This document shows, piece after piece, positions 4,029 through 26,240 of a stretch of 64,000 nt of DNA. The notes below the pieces were generated by a model, which searched no databases, was not told the origin of the DNA, and worked only from the letters and a program-made list of their open reading frames with translations. Both the position numbers and the translations under genes were made by a program. Position 1 is the first letter of the stretch; the number at the start of each line of letters is the position of its first letter. This DNA is from a virus: the IMG/VR virus record IMGVR_UViG_3300042558_005646. One strand, 5' to 3'.

Positions 4029-4621
4029 TGAAAGAATTTATTGAATATTACGAAAAAATTAAATCAGATAAAGTACATATTATAAATATTGATTCAGTAA
4101 AATTTATTGTAAGAGAAATAACCTGGAAAGAAGGCTTGCTGATAGACGCAAAATCTTTTAGAAAAAAAGACAATATAGTTTATCAAAATTCAGAATTCGA
4201 AAAAAGAGAAATCTTAAGTCTCGCTATTCTACGTGCTTATGATTCTAGTACAAACATAGAATATATCCCAGAATTTGAAACATCTTTGATTCATACAATG
4301 AACCACACAGTAATTGAAAAATTATGGGTGGAATATCAAAACTATCTTTACTTAAATGCAGATGAAGCTAATTTTTATTACATAGCTGCAAAAAAATATT
4401 ACAATCCAAATGATACAGAAACTTATCCTCTTCCCCCTCTAATCGTAGAAATTGATTATATGACAAGAGGATTAGTTTCCATGAGTAAAGATGAATTTGC
4501 AAACTTAAGCATGAAAGAATTTGAAACTATTCAACTTGTTCTGGCTACCAAAAATGAAGTCAAGCCAGAATCAGCTGCTAATTTGGATATAGACTTAGAG
4601 AGAGAATCTCAACGTGTTTGA
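4028..4621 (+). CDS. Putative tail assembly chaperone
   Basis: FIVREITWKEGLLID N-terminus typical of tail chaperones; TAATG-coupled after second tube-like gene. Confidence 0.45.
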   Translation: MKEFIEYYEKIKSDKVHIINIDSVKFIVREITWKEGLLIDAKSFRKKDNIVYQNSEFEKREILSLAILRAYDSSTNIEYIPEFETSLIHTMNHTVIEKLWVEYQNYLYLNADEANFYYIAAKKYYNPNDTETYPLPPLIVEIDYMTRGLVSMSKDEFANLSMKEFETIQLVLATKNEVKPESAANLDIDLERESQRV

Positions 4622-5395
4622 TTCTTTAGCAAGAAAATGATTTGCTAATTCTGTTCTATCCCATTGATGAAATATGCAGTAAGGAACACCATCTTTATTG
4701 GTGACTTGCTTACCATCAAAGAAAACTTCTACATTATCACGCTTTATAGCTTCTCCAGTACATGCAAAAGTATCATTGTAAGGATGACATAACATATTCT
4801 TAGGATTATTCTTGAGATATTGGCTTAAGTATCCCAAAAATTGTTGATCCATAACCAAGAATTGTGATTTTCTATTTGTATTTGAAAACATCATCAAACA
4901 GTGATTGATCATATGTTCAATTTTGCCTCCAAATATTCCCCCATTAATCACCCATTCATCTTCATAAGAATCATTGTGAGACCTGAGCATTGTTCTCAAA
5001 GATTGTTCCCACCATAAATTACAGTCATTTTCTTTTATCTTCATGCCTTCCAATGAATAAAACATATTTATATCAGGATGAGATTCAAAAAATTGAAAAG
5101 GATCTGTTTGTATAACTACATCTCTCAAGTCAGAATGCATAACGTATTTATATTCATCAACATGTTCTGAAAGCCAATTATACAAAGCTAAATAACTTGT
5201 ATATAAATTCTCATTATTAGGAATGATGATATCGAAGTATCTTTCTAGCTTCTTAATGTTCTGAGGACTGACATTACTTACAAATACTGCCTTTTCAAAT
5301 GTTTTAAATTTTGAAAGTGAGTTCAAGAAAATATCACCTTCTAAAGAATCAATGCATTTATCTCCGACAGAAAAGTTGACCAGTAAATTTTTCAA
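4595..5395 (-). CDS. Putative GT-A glycosyltransferase
   Basis: YVMHSDLRDVVIQTDPF DxxD-type motif, INGGIFGG, DQQ and C-terminal HQWDR; TTG start overlaps upstream TGA (TTGA). Confidence 0.6.
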   Translation of the reverse strand: MKNLLVNFSVGDKCIDSLEGDIFLNSLSKFKTFEKAVFVSNVSPQNIKKLERYFDIIIPNNENLYTSYLALYNWLSEHVDEYKYVMHSDLRDVVIQTDPFQFFESHPDINMFYSLEGMKIKENDCNLWWEQSLRTMLRSHNDSYEDEWVINGGIFGGKIEHMINHCLMMFSNTNRKSQFLVMDQQFLGYLSQYLKNNPKNMLCHPYNDTFACTGEAIKRDNVEVFFDGKQVTNKDGVPYCIFHQWDRTELANHFLAKESNTLRFSL

Positions 5396-6219
5396 TTTAA
5401 TTCATCCCTTAATTTATTATATGTATTTTTTATACCCAAATGTAATCCAAGCAAATCTATATCAAATAAATGCAAATTATAATCACCGTAATAATTTAAT
5501 CCAAAAGAGCTGCTATTGACAACAATATCAACTTTATGGTCGGACAATTCATTTATAATTTCCGCAATTGTACTAAGCTTGTATTTTTCTTGGTAAGAAC
5601 AGTTAATAATTTTTTGTGAAGTATTTGATTCAATAACAAATTTTATAACTTCACATAAATCATCCATATAGAAAAAATCCATCCATTTATCTTGATGAAT
5701 TACAATTGGTTTTTTATTTATGTAATTAACAATACTTGCTTTTATCATTCTAGAAGAAAGTTCATCTTCATTGAAAACATTAAATATTCTTATATTATGA
5801 AAATTTGGATACAATATTCCAGACTTGGCAATAAAGTTTTTACTCATCCCATAAGGATCAATTGGAAAAGCACTTTTCAATTCAACAGAAGGATCAATTC
5901 CGTATCTTCTGTCTAATTCTGCTCCTGATCCAAATGAAATATATTTATCAAATGAGCAAGCATTATCTAATATATTTTGATGCATTATGCAGTTTTCATA
6001 AAAAACATCTGAAGTATCTTCTTTGAGTCTACTTCCACCAGAAGTAGCTGTGTGAATTACAGCATCAAAAAATCTATGTTCAAAAAATTTTTTTACAGAT
6101 TTGGCATCTATTAAATTCAAGTTGGATCTATTTGCTAAGGTTAAATCATAGTCAGAAAATTGCTTGGCTATATTTCGGGCAATGTATCCATTACTACCAG
6201 TAATTAATAACTTTTTCAT
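5392..6219 (-). CDS. NAD-dependent epimerase/dehydratase/reductase (extended SDR)
   Basis: ITGSNGYIA Rossmann motif, YGMSK catalytic motif; start reassigned to ATG 6219, 1 nt after the upstream TAA. Confidence 0.85.
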   Translation of the reverse strand: MKKLLITGSNGYIARNIAKQFSDYDLTLANRSNLNLIDAKSVKKFFEHRFFDAVIHTATSGGSRLKEDTSDVFYENCIMHQNILDNACSFDKYISFGSGAELDRRYGIDPSVELKSAFPIDPYGMSKNFIAKSGILYPNFHNIRIFNVFNEDELSSRMIKASIVNYINKKPIVIHQDKWMDFFYMDDLCEVIKFVIESNTSQKIINCSYQEKYKLSTIAEIINELSDHKVDIVVNSSSFGLNYYGDYNLHLFDIDLLGLHLGIKNTYNKLRDELN

Positions 6220-6220
6220 A

Positions 6221-7951
6221 TTAGCTCCACTGAGCTTCAGATAGTCTGCCTGGAATAAATCTTCCATTTTCATCCATCTTTGCTACAACTCTAGGTTCAA
6301 AAATTTCATTTGGATCTGTGAAAACTTCGCAAAGACAAGGCCCATCATATTCAAAGAACTCAGTCAATCGACTTTCAATTTCACTATTATTTTTAATAGC
6401 AAAATAAGGTATTCCATATGCATCAGATATTTTTTGAAAATTTGGAAAAGAAACTCCACTTGATTTTTCTGAAGCTACATAATGACCTTTGAAAAATGAT
6501 TTTTGTGTTACTTTGATCGACAAATAACCTTCATTATTTAGCAGTAAAATTTTAATCGGCAAATTGTTGTGCATCATTGTTTGAAGTTCATGAATATTAA
6601 GATGTAAACTTCCATCACCTTCAATACATAATGTTTTTTGCCCAGTAGAAGCAACTCCGATAGCACAAGGAAGGCCATAACCCATAGGGGCACAACCAGT
6701 ATTTGTAATAAGTCTCTGGTTGTCTTTTAGCTTCACTACCTGCATAGTGACAACATTGGCAGATCCATCGCTTGTTACTATGTCGTAAGTAGGGGGAGTT
6801 ATTTCTGATAATTTTTCAATCAAAAAGTAATTACTTACATAATCAGTTTTTTCACGATGTTTGGCTAATACTTTTGGAGACCTCAGAGCTTCACATTCTG
6901 ATATCCAATCTGCTGAAGCTTTATTGATGAAAACTTTATTCAAATTATTTATGAATTTTTTTGCATCTTCGCAAACTTTCATATCAAGTCTAAGTGTAGG
7001 TTTTTCTAATTCGTTTGAGTCAATATCTACTGCAATTTTGTATGCGTTTTTGCCAAAATCATCAAAATTGTAACCTATTTGACGTACATAAAGTCTTGAA
7101 CCAATAGAAATTATAAAATCAGCTTCATTAATAAGCTTATTAGCGCATATCTGAGCATGAGTACCAAATCTCCCATAATAGTAGGGGTAAGATTCATTGA
7201 CAATATCGTTCCCATTAACTGCAGTAATGACAGGTATATTGGTCTTATCTAGAAGCTCAAATAAATTTTCAACAGCTCCTGAAATTCTTACACCATTCCC
7301 AACAATTAGTAATGGTTTCTTTGCTTTATTCCAAGAGTTCACTATAGAAATATAATCTACTGTAGATTGCGTCATCTCAATAATACTTGGCACAAAAGGT
7401 TTCAATTTTGATGGTTCAATTTGAGCAGACTGTACATCTAGGGGAATATCAACCCACACAGGTCCAGGTCTTTTATTAAGTGCAAAATAACACGCTTTTT
7501 CTAGATAATAGCGAATTTCTTCTGGATTGTTTACTTGAACAGCAAATTTTGTCATTGTCTTTGCAGTTTTTACAATATCAAATTCTTGATCACCTAATTG
7601 CCTAAGACTCAATTTAGTGTAATTTGTAGTCATTGGAGTGTTTACTTGTCCACTAATGACTATCACAGGAACTGAATCCAAATAACTGCATAGAGTTCCT
7701 GTGAGGGCATTTGTACCACCAGGACCAGAAGTTACTAAGCAAGCCCCTAGTTTATTCTTCTTTCTAGCGTAACCCTCTGCAGCAATTGATGCTCCTTGTT
7801 CATGATGAGTTGCTATGTAATTTACGTCTTCAGATTTTCCAAGTGAATCAACTAAATGTATACAACCACCTCCTGAAAGTGTAAAGATTGTATCTACATC
7901 ATAGTTATCGTGAAGAAATTTAATTACATAATCTGATAGTTTCATAAACAT
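6221..7951 (-). CDS. TPP-dependent acetolactate-synthase-fold enzyme (YerE-like sugar C2-branching candidate)
   Basis: HHEQGASIAAEGYAR, VTSGPGGTN, GQV, MGYGLP, GDGSLHLNIHELQT...NNEGY TPP motif; sits in a nucleotide-sugar cluster. Confidence 0.85.
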   Translation of the reverse strand: MFMKLSDYVIKFLHDNYDVDTIFTLSGGGCIHLVDSLGKSEDVNYIATHHEQGASIAAEGYARKKNKLGACLVTSGPGGTNALTGTLCSYLDSVPVIVISGQVNTPMTTNYTKLSLRQLGDQEFDIVKTAKTMTKFAVQVNNPEEIRYYLEKACYFALNKRPGPVWVDIPLDVQSAQIEPSKLKPFVPSIIEMTQSTVDYISIVNSWNKAKKPLLIVGNGVRISGAVENLFELLDKTNIPVITAVNGNDIVNESYPYYYGRFGTHAQICANKLINEADFIISIGSRLYVRQIGYNFDDFGKNAYKIAVDIDSNELEKPTLRLDMKVCEDAKKFINNLNKVFINKASADWISECEALRSPKVLAKHREKTDYVSNYFLIEKLSEITPPTYDIVTSDGSANVVTMQVVKLKDNQRLITNTGCAPMGYGLPCAIGVASTGQKTLCIEGDGSLHLNIHELQTMMHNNLPIKILLLNNEGYLSIKVTQKSFFKGHYVASEKSSGVSFPNFQKISDAYGIPYFAIKNNSEIESRLTEFFEYDGPCLCEVFTDPNEIFEPRVVAKMDENGRFIPGRLSEAQWS

Positions 7952-8966
7952 TTTCCAGTGCTGTTTTTATTATAGAATAATCTTCAATTTTTTGAATTAC
8001 TGGTTGATTATCTTTGATTAGCACCATGTTAACACAGCCAGTATTTTTCTTATCTGACTTGACACATTCCATAAGGCTCTCATAATCAAACCATTCTTGA
8101 TTAACAGATACTGTATTTTCTAGAAGTTTTTTGACAATATTTAATGTTGCAGAATAATCTTTGTAATTATAGTTATAAGATAGTTCACTTAACCTCAAGG
8201 CTACAAGACATCCAATTGCCACTGCATATCCATGCGATAACTTGTACTTTGAGGTAATTTCTAAAGCATGACCAAATGTATGACCAAAGTTCAGGAATTT
8301 ACGCTCTTTTTTATCAAATTCATCAATCTCTAAAACTGAAATTTTATAATTAAGACTTTTATGAATGTGATACAAAACATTTTTATTTTCAGTAATCAAA
8401 TCAATGACATTTGATTCTTGAATTTTATTTCTCAAGATATCAAACTTCAACAATTCGCCTAAACCACTACAAAAGTTTTCTTTACTTAAACCATCAAGCC
8501 ATTCTTCACAAATAAGAATTTCACAAGGAGGATAAAATGTACCAAGAATATTTTTTCTTGACCCATAATTGATAGAAGTTTTACCGCCAACACAGCTATC
8601 GATTTGAGAAAGCAATGTTGTTGGAACTAAATAATATTCAATACCTCTACAATAAACAGAAGCACAAAAACCCACTGCATCTTGTAAAACTCCACCACCA
8701 ATAACTACAAGTTTAGTTTGCGTATTGACTTTTTTTGCAGCAAATTTATCAAATATTTTTTCTAAACCACGCCATGATTTTAAGTCTTCATTTGTGTCTA
8801 TAACTATGAGATCACCTAATCCAAATTCAGGAAAACAGTGAGCAACATTTTTGTCAACTACTGCAAGATGATAATCTTCACCAATGAGTTTATATATTTC
8901 GCTCAAGCTTACAAAATTTACAGAATAATCTTTGATTTTTGATTTGACATCTATTTGGCTGTACAT
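7920..8966 (-). CDS. 3-dehydroquinate synthase-family sugar-phosphate cyclase
   Basis: GGGVLQD, RG...PTTLLSQIDSCVGGKTSIN, KNILGTFYPP, NFGHTFGHALE, HGYAVAIG. Confidence 0.9.
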   Translation of the reverse strand: MYSQIDVKSKIKDYSVNFVSLSEIYKLIGEDYHLAVVDKNVAHCFPEFGLGDLIVIDTNEDLKSWRGLEKIFDKFAAKKVNTQTKLVVIGGGVLQDAVGFCASVYCRGIEYYLVPTTLLSQIDSCVGGKTSINYGSRKNILGTFYPPCEILICEEWLDGLSKENFCSGLGELLKFDILRNKIQESNVIDLITENKNVLYHIHKSLNYKISVLEIDEFDKKERKFLNFGHTFGHALEITSKYKLSHGYAVAIGCLVALRLSELSYNYNYKDYSATLNIVKKLLENTVSVNQEWFDYESLMECVKSDKKNTGCVNMVLIKDNQPVIQKIEDYSIIKTALENVYETIRLCN

Positions 8967-9589
8967 GAATAACCACCATCTATAACTATATTTTGACCAG
9001 ATATATATGAATTGTTTACACTCAAGTAATATACTAAATCTGCAACTTCATTTGTATATCCCAATCTACCAACTGGAATTTTGCTTCTTAAATCTTTCAA
9101 ATCTTCTTCTGTGTTATTTTGAAAAGTCATATCCGTGATAAAAAATCCAGGAGACACAGTGTTTGCCAAAATATTATAAGTGCCATATTCAGCAGTTATA
9201 GCTTTTGTAAGAGAGTGTAAGGCATTTTTGCTAGCACTATATGAGGATCTTCCAGGTTTTGCATAATCTACCCATACACTTCCAATATTTACAACCCTGC
9301 CATAATTTTGTTTCTTCATATGAGGTAAGCAAAGTTTAAATAATCTTAAAGGTGAGAAATAATTTACTGTCATCATTTCTTCATAATTCTCACCTTCAAA
9401 TATAGAATCTATTATGTTAATACCAGCGTTATTTATTAAAATATCAATTTTGTCTGGAATAAAAGAAAAGGGTTGAGATAAATCAAGTTCTTCACGAGTT
9501 GGAGCAATAACTTCATGACCATATTTTTTGAAAATTTCACAAATATCACTGCCTATGCCTCTTGACCCACCAGTGATAAGTATTCTCAT
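8951..9589 (-). CDS. Classical SDR oxidoreductase (FabG-like)
   Basis: ITGGSRGIG, NNAG, YSASK, VSPG, VDGG-like C-terminus. Confidence 0.9.
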   Translation of the reverse strand: MRILITGGSRGIGSDICEIFKKYGHEVIAPTREELDLSQPFSFIPDKIDILINNAGINIIDSIFEGENYEEMMTVNYFSPLRLFKLCLPHMKKQNYGRVVNIGSVWVDYAKPGRSSYSASKNALHSLTKAITAEYGTYNILANTVSPGFFITDMTFQNNTEEDLKDLRSKIPVGRLGYTNEVADLVYYLSVNNSYISGQNIVIDGGYSCTAK

Positions 9590-10386
9590 AATTCAGAAGC
9601 TGATTTATTTATACGAGCTTGAATCATTTTAACTCTTGATTCATCTTGATTGGCTTGAGATTGATAATATTCCATCTTGTTTGTAAGCCATTCGTATTCA
9701 AACATTTGAGCCTTGAATAGTGCTCTGGATAAATTCTTTAGTGTAATTGAAGGATCAAATATTGCATATCTTGTTTCAAACTTATCAAGAAGTTTTTCAG
9801 AGTGTAATTTCTTTAAAAAGTCTAATGAATCAATTGAAACAGCACCACCAATACAAGCTTTAGCACCAAGCTTTTTAGTTCTTTCAAAAACATCATGAGC
9901 CATATTGTAAACTTCTTCAGAATTTACGTGACTTCTATCTGCTCCCATTGAAGAAACTAAATCTACTCTTCCGACAGTAACTCCATACAAAGCAGATGCG
10001 TTTTGGTTTGAAAGAATTTTGTCAATAGCTAAAACTGCAGAAATAGTCTCAATATTCACATTAAGCTGCAACGAACTTACAACTTCGGAAGGTAAATTAT
10101 TATTAACAGCTTGAACAAATTTAGTTAAACCAAATTCAGACTCAACCATCGGGGCTACCAAACCCTTTACTCCAATGATCATAGAGTCTTTGATATCTCT
10201 TATAGCTTCTGGTCCACCTATCTTTAAGGTTACTTTTGTTTTTGCTTGATTACAAATTTCTTTAAGTCTAAGAACTTCATTAAATGCAGCTCCTTCGTCT
10301 TCAAAACTTGTCTTAACGCCAACCAATCCGTAGTTTTCTACTAGATCTGTCAGAATTCTAACACACTCAAATTCTCTATTATTCAT
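9586..10386 (-). CDS. HpcH/HpaI aldolase / citrate-lyase-beta family
   Basis: VAPMVES, NIETISAV, VGRVDL motifs; polysaccharide-cluster variant with VKTSFEDEG and KIGGPEA. Confidence 0.75.
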   Translation of the reverse strand: MNNREFECVRILTDLVENYGLVGVKTSFEDEGAAFNEVLRLKEICNQAKTKVTLKIGGPEAIRDIKDSMIIGVKGLVAPMVESEFGLTKFVQAVNNNLPSEVVSSLQLNVNIETISAVLAIDKILSNQNASALYGVTVGRVDLVSSMGADRSHVNSEEVYNMAHDVFERTKKLGAKACIGGAVSIDSLDFLKKLHSEKLLDKFETRYAIFDPSITLKNLSRALFKAQMFEYEWLTNKMEYYQSQANQDESRVKMIQARINKSASEL

Positions 10387-10392
10387 AAATAT

Positions 10393-10401
10393 ATTTTACC
10401 A
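10393..10401 (-). promoter_or_regulatory. Extended -10 (TGGTAAAAT) 6 nt before aldolase ATG
   Basis: Same spacing as other leaderless sites, but overlaps the rmlB TGG-TAA end so may be coincidental. Confidence 0.4.
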
Positions 10402-11349
10402 AATGAAATGTGTTTTATAATATTCGACTATCTTTTTGATTTCATCGTCAAAAACACACTGAGGAGTCCAGCCTAAACCTCTAATCTTGTCGTCATTTAA
10501 AGCATATCTGACATCTTGTCCAGGTCTTTCAATTCCAAAATTAATAAAGTCTTGGTAATTATCCACTTCTTTTCCAAAGTATGCGTTCAAAACTTTTCTT
10601 ACTGTGTCTACATTTGATTGCTCAAACCCACCAGCGACATTGTAAATTTCGTTCTGCTTACCAGCCTCAATAATCTTCAACACAGCCAGAGCAGTGTCTT
10701 TTGCATGAAGCCAATTTCTTACTGGAGTACCTTGGTTATGTAATGGTATCTTTCTTTCAAGTCCTATAAATTTGCAAGATTTTGGAATCAACTTTTCAAC
10801 ATATTGTCCTTCGCCATAATTATTTGTAGGTCTTATGATATTGAAAGGTATGTCGTATGTTCTAGACCAAGCAATAATAAGTTGATCTGCAGCAGCTTTT
10901 GTGGCAGAGTAAGGATTACTAGGCTTCAAGATGTCTGTTTCAAAATGCTCACCATCTGCAATATCACCATAAACTTCATCTGTGCTGAAGTGAATTAGGG
11001 TTGGTACTACATATCCTTCTTTTTTGTATGTCTTAAGTAATTCAAGAATGTTGTGAACACCATAAATATTTGAATCAACAAAAACTTTACTGTCTCTTAT
11101 AGAATTATCTACATGAGTTTCTGCAGCTATATTGATAAAATAGTCACAATCCACCAATCTATCAATGTTGCAAATATTTTTATTTTCAAATTTGAATTTT
11201 GGATTAAGCATCCATTTTTCTAAAACACTAACGTCAGAGGCATAAGTACAATTGTCTATGCCATAAACATAGTATCCCTTATCAAGCAAAAGTTGAGTTA
11301 CTTGTCTGCCAATAAAACCTAAACAACCTGTAATATAAGCTAATTTCAT
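10396..11349 (-). CDS. rmlB: dTDP-glucose 4,6-dehydratase
   Basis: AAETHVDNSI, HFSTDEVYGD, PSNPYSATKAAAD, NNYG..Q..EKLIP, RNWLHAKD, RPGQDVRYA. Confidence 0.9.
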   Translation of the reverse strand: MKLAYITGCLGFIGRQVTQLLLDKGYYVYGIDNCTYASDVSVLEKWMLNPKFKFENKNICNIDRLVDCDYFINIAAETHVDNSIRDSKVFVDSNIYGVHNILELLKTYKKEGYVVPTLIHFSTDEVYGDIADGEHFETDILKPSNPYSATKAAADQLIIAWSRTYDIPFNIIRPTNNYGEGQYVEKLIPKSCKFIGLERKIPLHNQGTPVRNWLHAKDTALAVLKIIEAGKQNEIYNVAGGFEQSNVDTVRKVLNAYFGKEVDNYQDFINFGIERPGQDVRYALNDDKIRGLGWTPQCVFDDEIKKIVEYYKTHFIW

Positions 11350-12326
11350 TTATTCAATTTACGCTCTATGGTGTTTTTGATAAGATTTAGTACATTCCAG
11401 TCTTCAAAATTTTGTGTGCGAATATATTCACAAGTTCCGTCTGCAAAGTACCAATCAATTGTATCAACGCAAAATAAAATTAAAGTTTTGTTTTCATCAT
11501 AAACAACAGCATCTGTAAAAGATAAGCACCCAGGACCAGACTGACTAGTAACTATAACATCGCAGAATTTATGTAAATATTCAATTTCATCCAAGTTTGG
11601 AATTGGAAAATAATCATCAATATAATAGACATTGTTTGTTTTTATTTCATTAATTTTTGAAGTTAAGAGGAAGCAAATATTTGGATTATCTTTTATGTAG
11701 TCAGACAAAATATCTTCGTAAATATAATTTCTTCTTTGTCCAGAGGTTGTATTACCATTGCAGATCATGACTCTCATATCGTAATGACTTGTATCATTTA
11801 TTAATTTATCTGCAAAAAATTTGTATCTTGGATTGGAATTCCATTTACATACAAATTCTTTATGATCTGGAACCTCTAACTGCTTTGTAGAGAAATTCTC
11901 AATCAAAAAACTATTTATATTGTTGATTTTTTCTTGATAAAGTTTTGATTGCCAAATAGTTGAATCTTGAATTTCTTTACACCCAGAATGATAATTTCCA
12001 TTTTCGTCAGGAAGCTTGTACCCACCAGTTTCAATCTCTCTCATCTTTTCATAACTTGCTGCCCAAACATCTATCCAAAGAGCATCATCAAAGAATTCAG
12101 ACTTAAGATTATTTTTTAATTTCAATGCAGTACAACCATACATAAAATGAGGTAATGCAATTACAGTAACTTTTTCATGAATAAAACAAGTATCTTTGTC
12201 CTTAGTATGTAAATAAAAATAATTAAAATTATCACCTAGTTTATTAACTACCCATCTAACACCTTGTCTTGAGTGTAAAATGTCACCATACCCATGAGAA
12301 TTACAAAAAATAATAGTTTTTTTCAT
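11346..12326 (-). CDS. Putative GT-B (GT9-like) glycosyltransferase
   Basis: N-terminal HGYGDIL and C-terminal CDVIVTSQSGP resemble the GT9 pattern and match paralog 24005..24808; start reassigned to ATG 12326. Confidence 0.45.
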   Translation of the reverse strand: MKKTIIFCNSHGYGDILHSRQGVRWVVNKLGDNFNYFYLHTKDKDTCFIHEKVTVIALPHFMYGCTALKLKNNLKSEFFDDALWIDVWAASYEKMREIETGGYKLPDENGNYHSGCKEIQDSTIWQSKLYQEKINNINSFLIENFSTKQLEVPDHKEFVCKWNSNPRYKFFADKLINDTSHYDMRVMICNGNTTSGQRRNYIYEDILSDYIKDNPNICFLLTSKINEIKTNNVYYIDDYFPIPNLDEIEYLHKFCDVIVTSQSGPGCLSFTDAVVYDENKTLILFCVDTIDWYFADGTCEYIRTQNFEDWNVLNLIKNTIERKLNK

Positions 12327-12332
12327 AAAAAA

Positions 12333-12357
12333 ATTATACATTTATTGTTGGTATAAT
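12333..12357. promoter_or_regulatory. Divergent pair of sigma-70-type -10 elements, each 6 nt before an ATG (leaderless type)
   Basis: Minus TATAAT 12333-12338 before ATG 12326; plus TGGTATAAT (hexamer 12352-12357) before ATG 12364; no SD. Confidence 0.65.
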
Positions 12358-12363
12358 GTTCTC

Positions 12364-13703: not shown

Positions 13704-13711
13704 GAGCAACT

Positions 13712-14731: not shown

Positions 14732-14732
14732 C

Positions 14733-17961: not shown

Positions 17962-17964
17962 AAG

Positions 17965-18507: not shown

Positions 18508-19168
18508 TAATAATATAATTAAGAAACCTTGGGGCTACGAGTATCTTGTATATCAAGATACTAATGTAGCTCTTTGGTTTTTATATATTGCTCCAAATCA
18601 TAAAACATCTTTGCACTCTCATCCAAAAAAAACTACAGGATTGATAATTTTGGATGGAAAAGCACAAGTAGATTTTTTTAATAACGAAAATGTCTTAAAC
18701 AAACTTGACAAAATTATGATTAGAAAAGGGATGTTTCATTCAACAACATCTATTTCAGAAAATGGAACAAAACTTTTCGAAATAGAAACCCCAAATGATA
18801 AACTAGATTTAGTTAGATTAGAAGATTCATACGGTAGAAAGGGTTTGCCTTATGAAGATTCATCTTATGAAAATCCGAAACAAGATAATTGTCTTTGGTT
18901 GGAAAATCTTTCACTTTATGAGAATCAAAAACTTTTATTTTCTAATTGCAATCTAAGTATTTTGAATGTTAAAAAAATTACTGATTTGACTTGGTTAGAG
19001 CCGCAGAAAAATGTTATGTTTTTAACTGGTGGTATAATTACTGATTACGAAGTACTTATAGTTTGTCCCGGAGATATAGTCAAGATTGAAATATTACAAA
19101 AAATTGAAACAGTGTTTAATAAAATAAAAGAAAACACATTTGTAATTTTATTTGAAAATTTAGATTAA
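18488..19168 (+). CDS. Cupin (mannose-6-phosphate isomerase-like) domain protein
   Basis: KPWGYE, TSLHSHPKK, FHS, EIETP, DLVRLEDSYGR; start reassigned to ATG 18488. Confidence 0.75.
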   Translation: MQIESHNNNIIKKPWGYEYLVYQDTNVALWFLYIAPNHKTSLHSHPKKTTGLIILDGKAQVDFFNNENVLNKLDKIMIRKGMFHSTTSISENGTKLFEIETPNDKLDLVRLEDSYGRKGLPYEDSSYENPKQDNCLWLENLSLYENQKLLFSNCNLSILNVKKITDLTWLEPQKNVMFLTGGIITDYEVLIVCPGDIVKIEILQKIETVFNKIKENTFVILFENLD

Positions 19169-19169
19169 T

Positions 19170-20000
19170 ATGAATAACTATTTAGAGAAAGTTTTTGAAA
19201 AAATTTCTTTTTGCAGGCATTTTGAACAATATGTTTATAAAAAAGTGCAAGATAAAACTATCAAAATCCCAGTGTATTTATCAGCTGGTCAAGAAAGTAC
19301 TCCTTGTTCAATTTCAACTTATTTAGAAGATAAAAATATTAAGCCAAATATTTTTATTCAACATAGAGGACATTCAACATACTTGGCTTTTGAAGCGCCA
19401 CCTGAAAAGCTAATTGATGAATTACTTGGGTTAGATTCCGGCTGTGCATTTGGTATGGGAGGTTCTGCTTCTATACAATCTTTAGAAAAAAATATATTTG
19501 GTCATGATGGTTTAATGGGTTCTCAGGTACCTATTGCTGTTGGACATTGCTATCAAACAAAACAACCAACTATTGTTTTTATGGGAGATGCATCTGCGGA
19601 AGAAGATTATGTTGGTGCAGCCATAGGGTGGGCTTCAACTAAAAATCTACCAATTCTATTTGTTGTTGAAGATAATAATTTGTCAATTCTTACAGAAAAG
19701 AAGATTAGAAGAAACTGGAATATGCATGAGCTTGCACAAGCATATAAGGTTGAAGCTTATGACATTGAAGATAGTCCTACAGAAATTTTCAATCATCTCA
19801 AAAATGTTTTTAATACTCCTTTATTGTTGAATGTGAGAACTATCAGAAAATTTTGGCATTCTGGTGCTGGAATTGATGGGGATTATTTTGATAGGCTTGA
19901 ATGGATAAAAGAAACCTTGCAGTTTGATACATCATTTATCGATGAAAACAACAAAAATAAAGTTGAGGCATTATGGCAATCACGCTTAGAGACACTATAA
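19170..20000 (+). CDS. TPP-dependent dehydrogenase E1 alpha-like subunit
   Basis: YLSAGQE, HRGH, GGS, GSQVPIAVG, GDASAEE...VEDNN TPP motif. Confidence 0.85.
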   Translation: MNNYLEKVFEKISFCRHFEQYVYKKVQDKTIKIPVYLSAGQESTPCSISTYLEDKNIKPNIFIQHRGHSTYLAFEAPPEKLIDELLGLDSGCAFGMGGSASIQSLEKNIFGHDGLMGSQVPIAVGHCYQTKQPTIVFMGDASAEEDYVGAAIGWASTKNLPILFVVEDNNLSILTEKKIRRNWNMHELAQAYKVEAYDIEDSPTEIFNHLKNVFNTPLLLNVRTIRKFWHSGAGIDGDYFDRLEWIKETLQFDTSFIDENNKNKVEALWQSRLETL

Positions 20001-20893
20001 AATCAATAGTAAAAGACCATTTAGTTAGCAAAAAAGGCAAAGCATATGGTCAATGCTTAACTGCTGTAGGCTGGGTTGGTGGAACTTTACCAGAGCTTTA
20101 TGAACATGATGGCATGGTTGAACTTTCTATGGCAGATGTTGCTGGTGGTGCAATTGTTGTTGGTGCAGCTTTAGCTGGAGATAGACCTATTTATGTAGTT
20201 AGATATCAAGGTTTTCAGTGGTATAACTGCGTGTCAATTGTTAATTATGCCGCAAAATCTAAATCAATATGGAAAAGGCCTTGTCCAGTTTTTGTGAGAT
20301 CTATTGCTATGGAAGGCGGAATTGGGCCTGTTGCTGGTTCATCTCATCATTCCTTGGTTTATAGAATGCCCGGAATTAAAATTGCAAGTCCCATGTCTCC
20401 ATCAGAATATTTAGAATGTTATGATCATTTTATGAACGATGATGAGCCATACTATATATCTGAACATAGAAAAAGCTATGATAATACATCTAATTTATGT
20501 GATGTTTTTGAAAACGAGACTCCAGATTTTACAATTTTCCCAATTTCAATAACCAGATTTGAAATGGACAAACTAGTTCAATTATGTAAAGAATATAGTA
20601 TCAAGATTAACATATGTAATTTGATGTGGTTGAAACCACTTAAAGTATCCGACAAAGCTATAAAGAGTCTAAGTAATTCAAAATTTGGAGGCTTAGTATT
20701 AGATGATGATTACGAAAGCGGTTGCCAATCACATATTGCTAATCAATTATCAGTATCTTCTAGTAAAATTGTTAGATGCTTGGGCCTGGAAGATAAAACA
20801 GCAGGCTTCTATAACAGAGTTGATGTTCTACCTCCAACTGCTAAAAGTATCGTTGATTTTTTATTGAATATTAAAAACGAAACTAGGGTATAA
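19973..20893 (+). CDS. TPP-dependent dehydrogenase E1 beta / transketolase C-terminal-like subunit
   Basis: ELSMAD...GAALAGDRPI, GPVAGSSH, PGIKIASP, ISEHR, WLKPL; coupled to the E1 alpha-like gene. Confidence 0.8.
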   Translation: MAITLRDTIKSIVKDHLVSKKGKAYGQCLTAVGWVGGTLPELYEHDGMVELSMADVAGGAIVVGAALAGDRPIYVVRYQGFQWYNCVSIVNYAAKSKSIWKRPCPVFVRSIAMEGGIGPVAGSSHHSLVYRMPGIKIASPMSPSEYLECYDHFMNDDEPYYISEHRKSYDNTSNLCDVFENETPDFTIFPISITRFEMDKLVQLCKEYSIKINICNLMWLKPLKVSDKAIKSLSNSKFGGLVLDDDYESGCQSHIANQLSVSSSKIVRCLGLEDKTAGFYNRVDVLPPTAKSIVDFLLNIKNETRV

Positions 20894-20909
20894 TTTATTA
20901 GGGTGTAAA

Positions 20910-22073
20910 ATGTTTTATTTACCATTAATGAACAATAATATTGACAAAGAAGATATTAATTCAGTTATTGATTTTTTATCTCAAGATCAAATTCCCAAGC
21001 TTACAAATGGACCGAAAGTTGCTGAATTTGAGTCTGCTTGGGGAAAATGGCTAGGTACAAAGTATAATTTATTTGTCAATTCTGGAGCATCAGCAAATGA
21101 ATTGACAATGCTAGCTATAGCTCATTTAATTGGTGAAGGGGAAATTATTCTTCCACCACTTACCTGGATTTCAGATATTTCTTCAGTACTTTTTGCTGGA
21201 CATAAACTAGTATTTGTTGATGTAAATTTTACAAATCTTTCCTTTGATATAGAGAAATTAATAGCTGCTATCACCCCAGAAACAAAAGCCATATTTCTTA
21301 CTCACGTTCTAGGAATCAATGGTCTTACCAATGATCTTTTAAGGATATGTGAAGAGAACAACATTCTTTTAATAGAAGATGTTTGTGAATCTCATGGTAC
21401 AACTTTTCAAGATTGCAAAGTTGGAAATTTTGGATTTGCAAGTAATTTTAGTTTTTATTTTGCTCACCATATGTCAACTATTGAAGGCGGTATGATCTCT
21501 ACAAATAATTGGGAATTTTATCAAGTTTGTCGTGCTCTTAGGTCGCATGGAATGACTAGAGAAATGACAAGTGAAACAATGAAAATTTCTATTGCTCAAG
21601 ATAATCCTGACCTTAATCCAGATTTTATTTTTCTAAGACCGGCTCATAATTTTAGAAGCACTGAAATTAATGCTGTAATTGGAATTTCTCAGTTGACTAA
21701 GTTAGATCAAAAAAATAATGAAAGAAGAGAAAATTTTGACTTATTCATATCAAACTTAAATCCTGAAAAATATCATATAGCAATTAATACTGAGGGTAAT
21801 TGCAATTACGCTTTTATAGTAATACTTAAAGAGCCTAATTTTGAAAAACGAAATGCTCTGGAAAATAAACTATCTGAAAATGGAATTGAATTTAGAAGAG
21901 GATTGTCTGGTGGTGGAAATCAAATGAGACAGCCATTTTTTAAGGCTATTTATAACGATTTTACAAATTATCCTAATATTGAACACATTCATAATTTCTC
22001 TTGGTATGTTGGAAACTATCCTGGTCTTGAAAAAGAAAAAATTATCAAATTACTAGAGGTTTTGAATAGTTAA
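20910..22073 (+). CDS. DegT/DnrJ-family PLP enzyme with His in place of the Schiff-base Lys: ColD-like NDP-4-keto-6-deoxyhexose 3-dehydratase
   Basis: VNSGASAN, EDVCESHG, FSFYFAHHMSTIEGG, SHG, NFRSTE. Confidence 0.8.
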   Translation: MFYLPLMNNNIDKEDINSVIDFLSQDQIPKLTNGPKVAEFESAWGKWLGTKYNLFVNSGASANELTMLAIAHLIGEGEIILPPLTWISDISSVLFAGHKLVFVDVNFTNLSFDIEKLIAAITPETKAIFLTHVLGINGLTNDLLRICEENNILLIEDVCESHGTTFQDCKVGNFGFASNFSFYFAHHMSTIEGGMISTNNWEFYQVCRALRSHGMTREMTSETMKISIAQDNPDLNPDFIFLRPAHNFRSTEINAVIGISQLTKLDQKNNERRENFDLFISNLNPEKYHIAINTEGNCNYAFIVILKEPNFEKRNALENKLSENGIEFRRGLSGGGNQMRQPFFKAIYNDFTNYPNIEHIHNFSWYVGNYPGLEKEKIIKLLEVLNS

Positions 22074-22078
22074 TTTCT

Positions 22079-22849
22079 ATGAAAAGTCAATTTAAAAATA
22101 TAAATATATTAGTTATTGGAGATTCTTGCACTGATATTTTCACTTATGGAAATGTTTATAGATTGGCTCCAGAAGGCCCAGTACCCGTTTTTAATCCAAG
22201 CCATTCTCAAAGTAGTGGTGGAATGGCTTTAAATGTGCATCGCAATATTGTTGCAATAGGAGCAAATGCTACACTAATCTGTCAAGAAGAAGAAATTTAC
22301 AAAACAAGATATGTTGATTATCGGACAAATAGTCTTCTTCTAAGAATTGATACAAACGACAAATCAACAAGAATCAGTAGAGAAGTAATTAGTAAAATAA
22401 AAAATAATCATTATTTAGATGTAGCATACGATGCAATAATTATAAGTGATTATTGTAAAGGTTTTCTTGAAGAGGATGATATTTCTTTCATTGGAAGAAA
22501 TAATAAAAATGTTTTTCTAGACACTAAAAAAATTTTAGATGAATGGTGCAAGAATGTTTCATATATTAAAATAAATGAAACTGAATATGAAAGAACATTA
22601 CATACTATAGAAAAGTTAAATATTAATAAAAAACTTATAATAACAAAGTCTGATAAAGGTTGTGAATTTGATGGAAATATATTTCCAGTTGAAAAAGTTA
22701 ATATTAAAGACTTATCTGGCGCTGGAGATACTTTTATTTCAGGATTAGCTGTAGAGTTTGCAAGATCTAATGATATTTTTAATTCAATTGTTTTTGCTCA
22801 AGAATGTGCTACTAAAGTTGTGCAAAAGAAAGGTGTGTGTACTATATGA
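22079..22849 (+). CDS. rfaE: HldE/RfaE domain I-like heptose-7-phosphate kinase (PfkB family)
   Basis: LVIGDSCTD...RLAPEGPVPV, GGMALNV, KTRY, SDYCKG, KINETE, DLSGAGDTF. Confidence 0.8.
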   Translation: MKSQFKNINILVIGDSCTDIFTYGNVYRLAPEGPVPVFNPSHSQSSGGMALNVHRNIVAIGANATLICQEEEIYKTRYVDYRTNSLLLRIDTNDKSTRISREVISKIKNNHYLDVAYDAIIISDYCKGFLEEDDISFIGRNNKNVFLDTKKILDEWCKNVSYIKINETEYERTLHTIEKLNINKKLIITKSDKGCEFDGNIFPVEKVNIKDLSGAGDTFISGLAVEFARSNDIFNSIVFAQECATKVVQKKGVCTI

Positions 22850-23718
22850 TAGATATAGATACAATTATTCGTGAAAGATTAAATCTTCATGATATCTCTG
22901 ACATAGATTGTTATAAAAACATTGACAAAAGAAATGAATTTCATACAAAAATAAAAGACATTATTAATGAACATGTTCCGAAGATTGAATCAAAACATAA
23001 CCCAGAACATGAAGCACTTCTTAAAGATCAAGGATATGTCATTTTTGAAAATTTTTTGAGCCAAGAGCAAGTAAATAGTATTTTAGAATACACTAAAGAT
23101 AAAGCTGGATATAATTTCCATGTTCCTAATAGAGCTTACAATAAAGAAACTAAAATTTTTTCTGACGATATAGATTGGAATATTTTAGCTTATAATACAG
23201 ATGTATTACTTAAAAACGAGTTAATTATCAAAATTATGACTGACCCTGTGTTAGTTTCATTGGCGCAATCATATATAGGTTGCTTGCCCTCTGTACATAT
23301 GCTAAGTATGTGGTGGAGTAAATTCACAGGTGAAGTTTTTCACACTCAAAAAATACACAGAGACGGGGACGATTATAAGTTTTTAGCTTTTTTTGTTTTC
23401 TTGACTGATATTGATGAAAACAATGGACCTCATATTTTTTATCCAAGAACACAAAATGGTTCAGATGATCTTTCTGAAAAAGTTGTTATAACAGGAAAAG
23501 CAGGAACTGCAGTTTTAGCAGATACATTTGCTTGGCATCATGGAGCACCTTTAAAGGAAGGTAAAAGAATGCTAATGTTTATTAGATTTGGTCTATTTAA
23601 AAATAATAATTATTATAGAGATGAAAGCTACGTACATGCTCAAGATTCTGATGTATTCTTTAGTAAAATTGAAGATTCATATACTAATAGGCATTTATTG
23701 AGGTTATTTATCAAATGA
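22837..23718 (+). CDS. PhyH-like Fe(II)/2OG dioxygenase
   Basis: HRDGDD, FLTDIDENNGPH, GKAGT..LADT..WHHG..R. Confidence 0.75.
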   Translation: MYYMIDIDTIIRERLNLHDISDIDCYKNIDKRNEFHTKIKDIINEHVPKIESKHNPEHEALLKDQGYVIFENFLSQEQVNSILEYTKDKAGYNFHVPNRAYNKETKIFSDDIDWNILAYNTDVLLKNELIIKIMTDPVLVSLAQSYIGCLPSVHMLSMWWSKFTGEVFHTQKIHRDGDDYKFLAFFVFLTDIDENNGPHIFYPRTQNGSDDLSEKVVITGKAGTAVLADTFAWHHGAPLKEGKRMLMFIRFGLFKNNNYYRDESYVHAQDSDVFFSKIEDSYTNRHLLRLFIK

Positions 23719-24005
23719 ATATGAAAGAATATTATGCAATGTACTTGACTTTGCATCAAAATAAAATTTGTAGAAGATTGCATGTGTTGGGTCAAATTAT
23801 GACATTACTTTGGATTGCAGGATGTCTTAATTTCGGATATTACTGGTTTCTTTTATTGACTCCTTTTGTAGTATATCCTTTTGCATGGTCAGGACATTAT
23901 TTTTTCGAAAAGAATCAACCAGCAGCCTTCAAGGATCCTTTAAAGGCAAAGATCAGTGATTGGATTATGTTATGGGATATTTTGAAAGGGAAAATAGAAA
24001 TATAA
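23715..24005 (+). CDS. DUF962/Mpo1-like membrane protein
   Basis: YLTLHQNKICRRLHVLG, FAWSGHYFFEKNQPAAF..P. Confidence 0.8.
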   Translation: MNMKEYYAMYLTLHQNKICRRLHVLGQIMTLLWIAGCLNFGYYWFLLLTPFVVYPFAWSGHYFFEKNQPAAFKDPLKAKISDWIMLWDILKGKIEI

Positions 24006-24808
24006 TGAATTTGTTATTATGGATAAATCAATCAAATGGCGACACTCTGACTGCTATACCTTTAATGGAAGCAATAATAAAACAATTTCCTAATGTAAAT
24101 ATCAAATTTGCATGTTTCAAAAGTCAATCTTATTTAGTAAGACATTTGCCTATACAAATTATTGAAGCCGACGGTAATTACAGAAACCTCGTAATGAGAA
24201 CAAGACCGGATTATTTTTTGAGGAAAATTAAACCATTCATTAAACCAGAAGATACTCTAATTCATCTTTGGGGTGGTCTTTATAATTTAAAGCACATTTG
24301 GCAGGATCAAATCAAAACATTCAATCAACAATGCGCAAATAATAATATAAATTTATTTCTTGATAATTCAGAATTTGGGTATATTGAGTTACCTATAGTT
24401 GATGTAAATGTAAAAGCAAATGCAGTTTATGTAGAAAATAGTCAACCAGTTAGCGGACAAACTAATTTTCAGTATGATATGTATAAATTGGGCTTGATGT
24501 TTCCAAGAATTAATTTTTATACTGTTGGACCAATTAATTTTTCTGCAAATAATGTACATGATTGTAGCAAAAAATCTTTAATAGAACTTTCTAGTATTTC
24601 CAGAAAATGTAAACTTATTTTAGGAAAAGGAAGTGGTCCTTTTTTCTGTACATTAAATGAAGAAAACAAACATAAAACGAAGGTCTTGGCGGGCTTAATG
24701 GGTGGATTTAGATATAAGTTTTGGAATCTAAATGATGAAAATACATTACTACTTGATACTGAACAAGAAATATTTGAGCTATTAAGGCCAATAAATAGAG
24801 GTCAATGA
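24005..24808 (+). CDS. Putative GT-B (GT9-like) glycosyltransferase
   Basis: QSNGDTLTAIPLMEAIIKQFPNVNI N-terminus and LIELSSISRKCKLILGKGSGP; start reassigned to TAATG at 24005. Confidence 0.55.
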   Translation: MNLLLWINQSNGDTLTAIPLMEAIIKQFPNVNIKFACFKSQSYLVRHLPIQIIEADGNYRNLVMRTRPDYFLRKIKPFIKPEDTLIHLWGGLYNLKHIWQDQIKTFNQQCANNNINLFLDNSEFGYIELPIVDVNVKANAVYVENSQPVSGQTNFQYDMYKLGLMFPRINFYTVGPINFSANNVHDCSKKSLIELSSISRKCKLILGKGSGPFFCTLNEENKHKTKVLAGLMGGFRYKFWNLNDENTLLLDTEQEIFELLRPINRGQ

Positions 24809-24856
24809 AGATCTCTATTTATTGGCCTTTAAATTCAGTTCTAATTGATTTTATTT

Positions 24857-26167
24857 TTATTTGTCAAAAAAACTATCCAAAACATCACTTATATAATAAA
24901 TTTGTTCCGGTGTAATTACTGGAGATGTACCTAAAAAGAAAGTATCAGTGGTTACCTTTTTAGCTACAGGAAAATCACCAAGATCCATATCACCAACCAA
25001 ATGACTATAAGCTGGTTGCATAAGAATATTTCCAGCAAAATATGGTCTAGTTTGAATTTTTTTAGATTCTAAATATTGACATAAATCACTTCTCTTAAAT
25101 GGTGCGTTATCTTTTATAGTAATAGGAAATGCAAACCAATTAACATCTGAATTTTTTTGTGCTACTGGAAGAACAAAGTATTCTTCATACTTGCTAAAAA
25201 TATCAAAAAGCAACTTATGATTTCTTTGGCGAAGTTTCTTAATTTCATTAAGTTTATCAATTTGAGCCAACAACATACTAGCTTGAACTTCGATTGGTTT
25301 TAAATTATAACCAATTTCCTCATACACATACTTGTGATCAAAAACTTCACCTGGGATACTTGGCAACCATTCAGAAAATCTTTTATTACAAGCTCCACAT
25401 TCTGTAATATTTTGTTTACCAATACAGAAACAGCCACGCCCCCAATCACGAAAAGAACGAATTACTTTTTCAAGATTTTCATCATTACAAACAACTAATC
25501 CACCCTCACCACAAGTAATGTGATGAGCAGGATAAAAAGAGCAAGAAGCCATTGCGCCAAAGCTGCCTAAGGGATTACCATCAAATGACGATCCAAGAGC
25601 ATCACAGCAATCTTCTAACAAAATCAACCCATAATGGTCGATGATATCTAATAGCCTATACATGTCAGGAGGATTACCAAGTACATGAGCAAATGTAATT
25701 ATCTTGATCTCTGGGTCAGCCTGCAATGTGGCTTCAACATCGTCTAAGTTCAAGTTCAATCCATCTAATGAAATATCTACAAAGACTGGCTTAAAACCAC
25801 ACTGAAATATGGGATTGATTGTAGTGGGAAATCCAGCAATAGGAGTTAGTACTTTGGTTCCTTCAGGCAAATTTAAGTATCTTTTTGACTTAATTGCTGA
25901 CATCATAAGAAGATTTGAACTGCTACCAGAGTTTGTCAATAAAGCATGGTTTTTGCCAAATAAAGAAGCTAATTTCTTTTCAGCTTTATAGGCTTCAGCA
26001 CCAAGAACTAACCAACCATCTAGAAGAGTTGATACTGATCTAACAATTTCAGTATGATCAAAGTAAGGCCCAGCATAATGTACATGATCTTTTCCTGGTC
26101 TCCAACTCTTATTTGGTTCATTCTTGATATACTCTTCTACTAATTTAAGCAATTCTTCTTTGGTCAT
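24857..26167 (-). CDS. rfbH: CDP-4-keto-6-deoxy-D-glucose 3-dehydrase (RfbH/DdhC, E1)
   Basis: NSGSSSNLL, EDCCDALGS, SFYPAHHITCGEGG, DWGRGCFC...C..RF Fe-S motif, DHKYVYEEIGYNLK. Confidence 0.9.
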   Translation of the reverse strand: MTKEELLKLVEEYIKNEPNKSWRPGKDHVHYAGPYFDHTEIVRSVSTLLDGWLVLGAEAYKAEKKLASLFGKNHALLTNSGSSSNLLMMSAIKSKRYLNLPEGTKVLTPIAGFPTTINPIFQCGFKPVFVDISLDGLNLNLDDVEATLQADPEIKIITFAHVLGNPPDMYRLLDIIDHYGLILLEDCCDALGSSFDGNPLGSFGAMASCSFYPAHHITCGEGGLVVCNDENLEKVIRSFRDWGRGCFCIGKQNITECGACNKRFSEWLPSIPGEVFDHKYVYEEIGYNLKPIEVQASMLLAQIDKLNEIKKLRQRNHKLLFDIFSKYEEYFVLPVAQKNSDVNWFAFPITIKDNAPFKRSDLCQYLESKKIQTRPYFAGNILMQPAYSHLVGDMDLGDFPVAKKVTTDTFFLGTSPVITPEQIYYISDVLDSFFDK

Positions 26168-26192: not shown

Positions 26193-26224
26193 AAAAAAAG
26201 AGGAGTATTTCTACTCCTCTTTTT
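26193..26224 (-). terminator. Intrinsic terminator after major capsid gene
   Basis: AAAAAGAGGAGTA-tttc-TACTCCTCTTTTT inverted repeat with T-runs on both strands. Confidence 0.85.
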
Positions 26225-26240
26225 CATGACTAGTTTAGAA

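Follow-up and report, generated by a model that had tools for sequence, protein, structure and literature searches.

A hypervariable island of deoxy- and branched-sugar genes beside the capsid gene of a phage G-like jumbo phage

Why would a phage carry, directly beside its capsid gene, some 20 kb of genes for unusual sugars, and to what would it attach the products? This question is raised by a 64,000-nucleotide stretch of viral DNA (IMG/VR record IMGVR_UViG_3300042558_005646; hereafter the window, meaning that whole stretch), in which a preliminary description made from the sequence alone had placed 25 sugar-pathway genes in three blocks at positions 4595-26167. The open reading frame listing bears this out: 25 intact, non-overlapping genes (g01 to g25) are distributed in three strand blocks, eight on the minus strand (12341 to 4595), sixteen on the plus strand (12364 to 24808) and a single one on the minus strand (26167 to 24857). 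Pfam and NCBIfam models, complemented by structure and feature searches for the glycosyltransferases (GTs), recovered each enzyme class that had been named: an RmlB-like protein with four further extended short-chain dehydrogenases/reductases (SDRs; g02, g10, g12, g14) and two classical ones (g05, g13); two 3-dehydratases of the DegT fold, g25 (E1/RfbH) and g20 (ColD-type), both with the dehydratase histidine in place of the Schiff-base lysine of aminotransferases; two thiamine pyrophosphate (TPP) systems, g03 with three TPP domains and the split E1 alpha/beta pair g18/g19; the aldolase g06, the dehydroquinate synthase (DHQS)-family protein g04, the HldE-type kinase g21 and the cupin g17; and four GT-like proteins, of which g11 was recognized by Pfam, g01 by its fold, g24 by an Atlas structure and g08 only by language-model features. 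Two PhyH dioxygenases (g15, g22), a DJ-1/PfpI protein (g16), the Mpo1-like g23 and the conserved unknown protein g09 had been absent from that list. We consider it very probable that the block is an intact phage-encoded route to unusual deoxy and branched sugars. The fuller statement, i.e. that a fixed site holds a hypervariable island for glycan biosynthesis, with soluble products, two sugar modules and virion proteins as the target, is advanced tentatively, our confidence in the whole of it falling just short of even.

The right part of the window confirms that the head module announced there is real: it encodes the major capsid protein (26241-27095, minus strand; phrog_2522, 231.6 bits), which bounds the island on its right, a giant protein bearing a prohead-protease-like domain, the portal and the large terminase. 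The best match of the capsid protein is gp27 of Bacillus phage G, with 48% identity, followed by proteins of other very large phages. Scanning IMG/VR with this protein retrieved 80 loci, about 30 of them with a capsid 90-100% identical to that of the window, on contigs of up to 379 kb. Capsid kinship and these near-identical loci together show that the window derives from a phage G-like jumbo phage that is abundant but uncultured and belongs to a freshwater lineage; near-identical DNA was searched for among cultured phages and none was found. The GC content of the block (0.29-0.33) is the same as that of the remaining phage sequence. Phage G itself has no sugar genes beside its capsid gene, and the similarity of h3 to the phage G decoration protein gp26 was not significant.

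The window genes were compared with the loci of relatives and, for four large contigs, with longer stretches around them. The sides of the island are constant, namely five conserved backbone genes (t1-t5; 65-4621, plus strand) followed by g01 on the left and the capsid gene on the right, and the content between them differs. The left genes keep their order beside g01 in relatives G001, G002, G004, G006 and G007, with identities of 27-87%. In the window the variable interval covers 20.8 kb (5396-26240), and the eleven intervals for which both boundaries are available, this one included, measure 72 bp (locus L014), 1 kb, 6-10, 11, 17, 20, 20.8 and 21.6 kb. They hold 71 gene families, 37 of which occur in one island only, and the Jaccard index between islands reaches at most 0.58, being 0 for several pairs; capsid identity among these eleven carriers is 90-100%. 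Since g01 is kept even where the island is empty (L014), it belongs to the conserved backbone and lies outside the variable island. The most widespread island genes are g25, g23, g21 and g20, present in 13-19 loci (g25 in 19, g23 in 17). Island genes are under purifying selection, with ratios of nonsynonymous to synonymous divergence (dN/dS) of 0.04-0.23 versus 0.04-0.06 for the capsid gene (an artefactual value for the pair g10 and L163 was left out). A chimeric bacterial insert, the artefact that the preliminary description had named as fatal to its own proposal, is ruled out by more than 25 contigs, assembled independently of one another, in which this site is likewise filled between the same phage flanks.

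Synonymous divergence (dS) from relative G002 is mosaic, with 0.12-0.19 for g04/g05, 0.35 for the capsid gene, 1.33 for g20 and about 1.3 for g10, which points to module exchange between co-occurring phages as its probable origin. The pair g04/g05 (window 7920-9589; L164:15636-17302 in G002) is closer between the two phages than are the capsid genes, and identity falls to 63% and 50% in the adjacent g03 and g02; this juxtaposition of low dS and diverged neighbours indicates a putative recombination breakpoint within the cassette that these genes form. Islands of other relatives add an RmlC-like epimerase, a HAD-nucleotidyltransferase fusion with a GHMP kinase, B12-radical-SAM enzymes, TylC3-like C-methyltransferases, FkbM methyltransferases, NeuB, PanB and GT2/GT92 transferases. 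The B12-binding radical-SAM enzyme and TylC3-type C-methyltransferase domains, found at L005:8533-10065 and in related sequences, suggest that sister phages may make C-methyl-branched sugars. At L024:4749-5924, beside the GHMP kinase and the HAD-nucleotidyltransferase fusion, a relative's sugar island encodes a protein resembling the large subunit of RuBisCO (PF00016, 115 bits), probably a RuBisCO-like enzyme acting on a sugar phosphate. Several relatives carry, between capsid gene and island, a LAGLIDADG-type homing endonuclease with a helix-turn-helix (L030:10977-12443, with homologues in L001, L004, L006, L009, L019, L024 and L027; it is not in the window), which could help to make the site a recombination hotspot. 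Finally, lone extended-SDR (epimerase/dehydratase) genes far from the island (G002:C1:135774-136493, G003:C1:51832-52536 and G007:C1:289629-290297; none in the island-less G006) mean that some sugar genes reside elsewhere in relatives' genomes.

What could the island make? Long acyl-branched sugars are built in bacteria by an aldolase yielding a gamma-hydroxy-alpha-keto acid, a YerE-like enzyme that adds it to CDP-4-keto-3,6-dideoxyglucose and a reductase that finishes the side chain (Steitz et al. 2022, PMC9306805). The set g07, g25, g06, g03 and g02, all on the minus strand, is an exact match to this published acyl-branched 3,6-dideoxyhexose scheme, from which we infer substrates and product. 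The RmlB-like g07 (10396-11349) is a predicted nucleoside diphosphate (NDP)-hexose 4,6-dehydratase of the dTDP type (TIGR01181, 288.6 bits, cut-off 365, versus 58 bits for CDP-glucose 4,6-dehydratase) and would dehydrate host-supplied NDP-glucose at C4/C6. The 3-hydroxyl would then be removed by g25 (24857-26167), an E1/RfbH-type 3-dehydrase dependent on pyridoxamine phosphate (PMP) and Fe-S (RfbH NF011936, 441.5 bits, cut-off 423), to give an NDP-4-keto-3,6-dideoxyhexose; over its whole length this protein can be aligned with 3bcx, the structure of an E1 dehydrase (331.6 bits), and it shares the active-site histidine and the C-x-C...C-x2-C Fe-S segment. The candidate maker of the donor, a hydroxylated alpha-keto acid, is g06 (9586-10386), an aldolase of the HpcH/HpaI (citrate-lyase-type) family (PF03328, 35 bits, cut-off 25), i.e. 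the family of the caryophyllose-locus aldolase MMAR_2331 (PMC9306805). Bacteria use for this step either a BphI-like aldolase with an acetaldehyde dehydrogenase, as in Pectobacterium, or an HpcH/citrate-lyase family enzyme, as in M. marinum (PMC9306805), and in the relative L013 RfbH, a thiamine diphosphate (ThDP) enzyme, an acetaldehyde dehydrogenase and a DmpG-type aldolase stand in a row as an erwiniose-type set.

The ThDP enzyme of the window, g03 (6221-7951), is a predicted YerE/JanthE-like carboligase that would decarboxylate the keto acid and add the product to the C4 ketone. Its best solved relative is JanthE (8rph, 394.6 bits, versus 257 bits for the best acetolactate synthase), a YerE-like enzyme joining alpha-keto acids to ketones (PMC12188165), and it scores far under the cut-offs of all acetolactate synthase NCBIfam models; it shares one island with g07, g25 and g02, an association that recurs in bacteria and other phages. 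The extended SDR g02 (5392-6273; Pfam Epimerase, 74.9 bits), which adjoins the ThDP gene in every bacterial and viral copy of the cassette, is a candidate YerF/ErwF-type ketoreductase for the side-chain ketone. Module 1 would yield a 3,6-dideoxyhexose with a long acyl branch, resembling erwiniose and caryophyllose. Two further constant members of the cassette, kept even where a copy misses the aldolase, are the DHQS-like g04 (7920-8966; Pfam DHQ_synthase and DHQS_C) and the classical short-chain dehydrogenase g05 (8951-9589; adh_short, 127.8 bits), which adjoins g04 in all copies; both are also on the minus strand. With scores below the cut-offs of both TIGR04425 (298.9 bits, cut-off 400) and the aroB model TIGR01357 (242.6 bits, cut-off 305), g04 can be taken as a member of the superfamily only, its nearest solved structures being true DHQS at 143 bits or less. 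Together g04 and g05 might tailor the donor or the side chain; for g04 phosphate elimination, cyclisation and oxidoreduction are candidate roles. A search of the literature found no paper linking caryophyllose with a DHQS-like enzyme.

The genes g02, g03, g06, g05 and g04 form a five-gene cassette. Operons syntenic with it exist in about 25 bacterial genomes, the identities being 29-46%. The bacterial carriers are mostly freshwater Bacteroidota (Chitinophagaceae, Flavobacteriales), the others being Ignavibacteria, Geobacteraceae, Smithella and bacteria of the candidate phyla radiation, and RfbH is often near. In a metagenome-assembled genome of Flavobacteriales the operon lies amid a nucleotidyltransferase, a 4,6-dehydratase, RfbH, GT2 and GT4 transferases and an acetyltransferase, i.e. 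within a surface-polysaccharide locus. A profile search of IMG/VR retrieved 54 cassette loci, four from the lineage of the window and about 50 others (L172-L221); the latter keep the phage order, (g25)-g07-g06-g05-g04-g03-g02, at 40-75% identity and lack the flanks of the window lineage. One of them, L214 (contig G009, 122 kb), carries the seven-gene set of RfbH, 4,6-dehydratase, aldolase, SDR, DHQS-like protein, ThDP enzyme and reductase. Three such viral contigs (110-122 kb) have no phage G-like capsid gene, and one of them has a T4-type Gp23. In a tree of the ThDP enzyme, viral and bacterial sequences are largely apart (three label changes, versus 17 in shuffles), and the viral ones do not form one clean clade, although such a clade is not rejected (p-AU 0.096). 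Module 1 is a cassette common to bacteria and unrelated phages.

A second dideoxy sugar could be the product of module 2, made up of g20, g12, g14, g10, g18/g19, g21 and the dioxygenases, all on the plus strand. The first of these, g20 (20910-22073), is a 3-dehydratase of the ColD type using pyridoxal or pyridoxamine phosphate, whose nearest structure is ColD (2gms, 173.7 bits) and whose histidine aligns with His188 of that enzyme. Two Fcl-like SDRs, g12 and g14, lie with the classical SDR g13 (adh_short, 80.7 bits) at 14673-17239 and score 145.8 and 94.7 bits with the GDP-L-fucose synthase model, both under its cut-off of 500; g10 (12747-13703) is an extended GalE/RmlB-like SDR (Epimerase, 115.6 bits; dN/dS 0.046 versus L011). 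ColD together with an Fcl-like enzyme converts GDP-mannose into colitose, and similar enzymes act on GDP-heptoses in Campylobacter. It can be speculated that the second sugar is of the colitose or perhaps of the dideoxyheptose type; the Campylobacter chemistry would fit both the GT9-like transferases and the kinase g21 (22079-22849), a PfkB sugar kinase resembling HldE domain I (TIGR02198, 121.8 bits, cut-off 345) which is present in the loci of 15 relatives. The split thiamine enzyme g18/g19 (19170-20893; E1_dh, 52.5 bits, and Transket_pyr, 37.8 bits) has no E2/E3 partner; two-subunit ThDP enzymes introduce C2 branches in Gram-positive sugar pathways (PMC4753412), and the second sugar might bear a C2 branch. 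Between these genes are the PhyH dioxygenase g15, the DJ-1/PfpI protein g16 and the cupin g17 of the C-terminal phosphomannose isomerase (PMI) type (17215-19168; PF05721, 79.1 bits, PF01965, 108.9 bits, and PF01050, 27.5 bits, respectively), and further on the second PhyH dioxygenase g22 and the 96-amino-acid Mpo1-like/DUF962 protein g23 (22837-24005; PF05721, 34.5 bits, and PF06127, 101.1 bits). The 133-amino-acid protein g09 (12364-12765) belongs to no family; it is 81-90% identical in relatives, always beside g10.

Four transferases would assemble these sugars inside the infected cell. The backbone protein g01 (4595-5395, minus strand) gave an AlphaFold2 model (pLDDT 84, pTM 0.84) with a GT-A fold, in which Foldseek recognized alpha-1,3-galactosyltransferase and glycogenin (E 3e-9, TM 0.57), as expected for a retaining GT6/GT8-like enzyme. 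It is 39-57% identical in most relatives, including L014, and 90% in contigs L170 and L171, with D89, R91 and D92 invariant. On the plus strand, g11 (13712-14731) is a GT-B glycosyltransferase (PF13524 Glyco_trans_1_2, 56.1 bits) and g24 (23960-24808) is GT9-like, its Atlas model superposing on GT9 clusters with TM 0.76; no Pfam family matched the latter. The putative GT9-like g08 (11346-12341, minus strand) had neither a Pfam nor a PDB sequence match, the weak evidence for it being an ESM Atlas feature search that retrieved viral clusters at 0.96-0.98, PF01075 Glyco_transf_9 making up 81% of one. Sequence searches of the PDB with g01, g08, g09 and g24 returned nothing, and BLASTP detected no mutual similarity between g01, g08 and g24.

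On what might these transferases act? Their most likely target would be the virion proteins of the phage itself, each phage variant thereby carrying its own glycan. Soluble enzymes, lack of export genes, a site in the structural region, a glycogenin-like GT in the backbone and variability at strain level favour cytoplasmic glycosylation of a phage product, for which mycobacteriophages and giant viruses provide precedents. A sequence screen revealed no membrane-like segment in any island protein, and neither this screen nor Pfam/NCBIfam detected a flippase, polymerase, ligase or initiating transferase in the island. The absence of the first three had been remarked on before with the reserve that they could lie outside the window, and it extends further: five contigs of relatives, 47-100% complete, yielded no match to Wzy/WaaL (PF04932, Wzy_C), Wzx (PF01943, Polysacc_synt) or initiating transferases (PF02397, Bac_transf), positive controls being matched. 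The capsid-targeting MWY leader was found in no island protein. The nearest alternative is remodelling of the host envelope, in which soluble GTs would add phage-made NDP-sugars to lipid-linked intermediates of the host lipopolysaccharide (LPS), capsule or S-layer and host flippases and ligases would export them, altering the surface during the long jumbo-phage infection, e.g. to block superinfection or to keep progeny off cell debris. We regard this alternative as doubtful but to be taken seriously: in bacteria, homologues of the cassette are part of surface-polysaccharide loci, two of the GTs look like members of GT9, the family of LPS-core heptosyltransferases, and g21 is HldE-like, a phage without nucleotidyltransferase already depends on host sugar metabolism, and this same interpretation was given for the LPS clusters of cyanophage P-SSM2 (PMC1079782) and the pelagimyophage islands (PMC7029224). 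However, no gene for an initiating, export, polymerizing or ligating function was matched in relatives that are 84-100% complete, no island protein looks membrane-associated, the island is embedded in the virion gene region, and the host machinery would need to accept very different foreign glycans from each phage variant. Virion proteins are slightly favoured over the host envelope.

Other destinations fare worse. Some other soluble product, either a free or small-molecule glycoside or cyclitol serving as metabolite, signal or protectant, or a glycosylated host protein, would accommodate the DHQS-like enzyme, dioxygenases, DJ-1/PfpI protein and kinase for which the nucleotide-sugar route has no assigned place, as well as the NeuB, PanB and RuBisCO-like proteins of relatives; it is nonetheless improbable, since the presence of four GTs, and of a cassette so closely tied to RfbH and a 4,6-dehydratase, argues for NDP-sugar chemistry and the assembly of a glycan, and no polyketide, nonribosomal peptide synthetase or aglycone genes are present. 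The least likely target is DNA. Hypermodification, with sugars on modified bases protecting the phage genome against restriction, would suit the variability between relatives as part of a restriction arms race, and phage GTs are known to put diverse glycans on 5-hydroxymethylpyrimidines (Pyle 2024). Against it, no gene for a ThyA-family hydroxymethylase or a TET/JBP dioxygenase (TET being searched without a positive control) was matched in the contigs of five relatives, of which one is 100% complete, and such genomes are routinely assembled from ordinary metagenomes. To our knowledge, no pathway of comparable size and type is known to make DNA sugars, and we give this alternative hardly any weight.

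Glycosylation of virion proteins, our preferred reading, has also its own difficulties. No nucleotidyltransferase is encoded in the island and two common families are absent from the 89%-complete relative G002, so the starting NDP-hexose must come from the host. A gene for an E3 (AscD/DdhD) ferredoxin-NAD reductase-type protein is likewise missing from the 25 island genes, though E1 requires a reductase partner; g25 would need one from the host, as SpnQ does. By score g07 is of the dTDP type whereas the bacterial cassette loci look CDP-type, and g04, g05, g09, g15, g16, g17, g21, g22 and g23 are without a place in the proposed scheme. The left flank (t1-t5) gave no Pfam, PHROG or PDB match except for one domain in t1, and its earlier labelling as a tail module was not confirmed. 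Lipid-linked intermediates of the host are also within reach of soluble transferases, and the authors who described similar pelagimyophage islands favoured modification of the host O-chain (PMC7029224). No acceptor protein was identified. All these points weigh against our reading. The earlier proposal of an exotic glycan made by the phage itself for its virion, the host surface or its DNA is partly supported: it stands at the gene level (an intact pathway with transferases, maintained by purifying selection), and its three targets are candidates of decreasing likelihood in that order.

The surroundings of the island offer some additional observations. Directly 3' of the capsid gene there is an intrinsic-terminator hairpin followed by a U-run (26194-26225, minus strand; 14-bp stem, -18.4 kcal/mol, z -4.6), and such a strong terminator means that the island is not simply read through from the capsid gene. 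The motif GGTAWAAT occurs 12 times in the window, versus 5.3 expected, and eight of the copies (at 10393, 12350, 17060, 19031, 20887, 26174, 36271 and 58492) lie just upstream of the starts of g06, g09, g15, g18, g20, g25, the portal gene and the gene ending at 58485; it may be the -10 element of a phage promoter common to island and structural genes. A scan for sigma-70 promoters was not above chance. On the left, t1 (65-931) contains a 'choice-of-anchor R' domain (NF041539, 37.8 bits), the sole family match among t1-t5. Profiles of t2 and t4 searched against PDB sequences returned nothing, and the AlphaFold2 model of t2 was of low confidence (pLDDT 47); that t2 and t3 might be sheath and tube is conjecture.

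Large sugar-gene clusters of lytic aquatic phages have been known since 2005, but their function was never proven. The near-identical capsid genes that stand here beside islands ranging from empty to 21.6 kb constitute a natural experiment, and the point of attachment of the glycan bears on whether it is their own particles or their hosts that big aquatic phages glycosylate. The predicted chemistry, acyl-branched 3,6-dideoxyhexoses, is defined and testable, with enzymes also of biocatalytic interest, and its conserved cassette is common to polysaccharide loci of Bacteroidota and at least two unrelated phage lineages. It is tempting to speculate that these phages coat their particles with strain-specific glycans whose dideoxy sugars bear long carbon branches, the side chain being possibly carbocyclic or otherwise DHQS-tailored, and that the modules are swapped among unrelated lineages. 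We think this wider picture rather unlikely to hold in full; if true, it would be the viral counterpart of bacterial O-antigen serotypes, with the DHQS-like/SDR pair as an undescribed branched-sugar step. The DHQS-like step itself may be new sugar chemistry.

How does the island compare with known systems? The bacterial pathways for yersiniose (YerE/YerF), erwiniose (ErwE/F/I/J) and caryophyllose (MMAR_2331/2332) share with it a 4,6-dehydratase plus E1, an aldolase-made donor, a YerE-like ThDP enzyme and a reductase (PMC9306805), the window resembling M. marinum in the HpcH/citrate-lyase family of its aldolase and a relative's island resembling Pectobacterium in its BphI/BphJ-type pair. In contrast to them, the genes are here phage-encoded, the cassette always includes an extra DHQS-like enzyme and a short SDR outside the published scheme, the island has neither nucleotidyltransferase nor E3 reductase, and the 4,6-dehydratase is by score of the dTDP and not the CDP type. 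What is new is that the genes can be matched explicitly to the scheme for acyl-branched sugars, with a second, erwiniose-type variant in a sister phage, and that the cassette is linked to polysaccharide loci of Bacteroidota.

Among viruses, sugar-gene islands in big lytic aquatic phages are already published. Those of aquatic T4-like myophages, i.e. the pelagimyophage 'host recognition cluster' (PMC7029224) and the 24 LPS genes of cyanophage P-SSM2 (PMC1079782), are likewise large, non-syntenic islands in the structural region, rich in GTs (GT8-type), rfaE-like kinases and deoxysugar enzymes of unproven function. The present island differs from them in its phage G-like backbone, in that no tail-fibre gene was recognized among the 25 and in that a near-complete branched-deoxysugar pathway, rather than transferases alone, dominates it, yet the same cassette is found in at least one T4-like contig. 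That backbone is new, and so is the graded occupation of one site, from empty up to 21.6 kb, next to a capsid gene that hardly varies. Mycobacteriophages (Freeman et al. 2023, as summarised in PMC12619734) also have GTs near structural genes that act in the cytoplasm without export machinery; they employ one or two GTs with host sugars, and the glycans on their capsid and tail-tube proteins were shown by mass spectrometry, whereas here glycosylation is predicted. The giant viruses (Mimivirus, chloroviruses; PMC9614988) come close in another respect, as they decorate their particles by means of their own rare bacterial-type sugar pathways and GTs, with clade-specific gene sets. These viruses are, however, eukaryotic and make other sugars (viosamine, bacillosamine, rhamnose and others), while here the variability is found among near-identical phages and is concentrated at a single locus.

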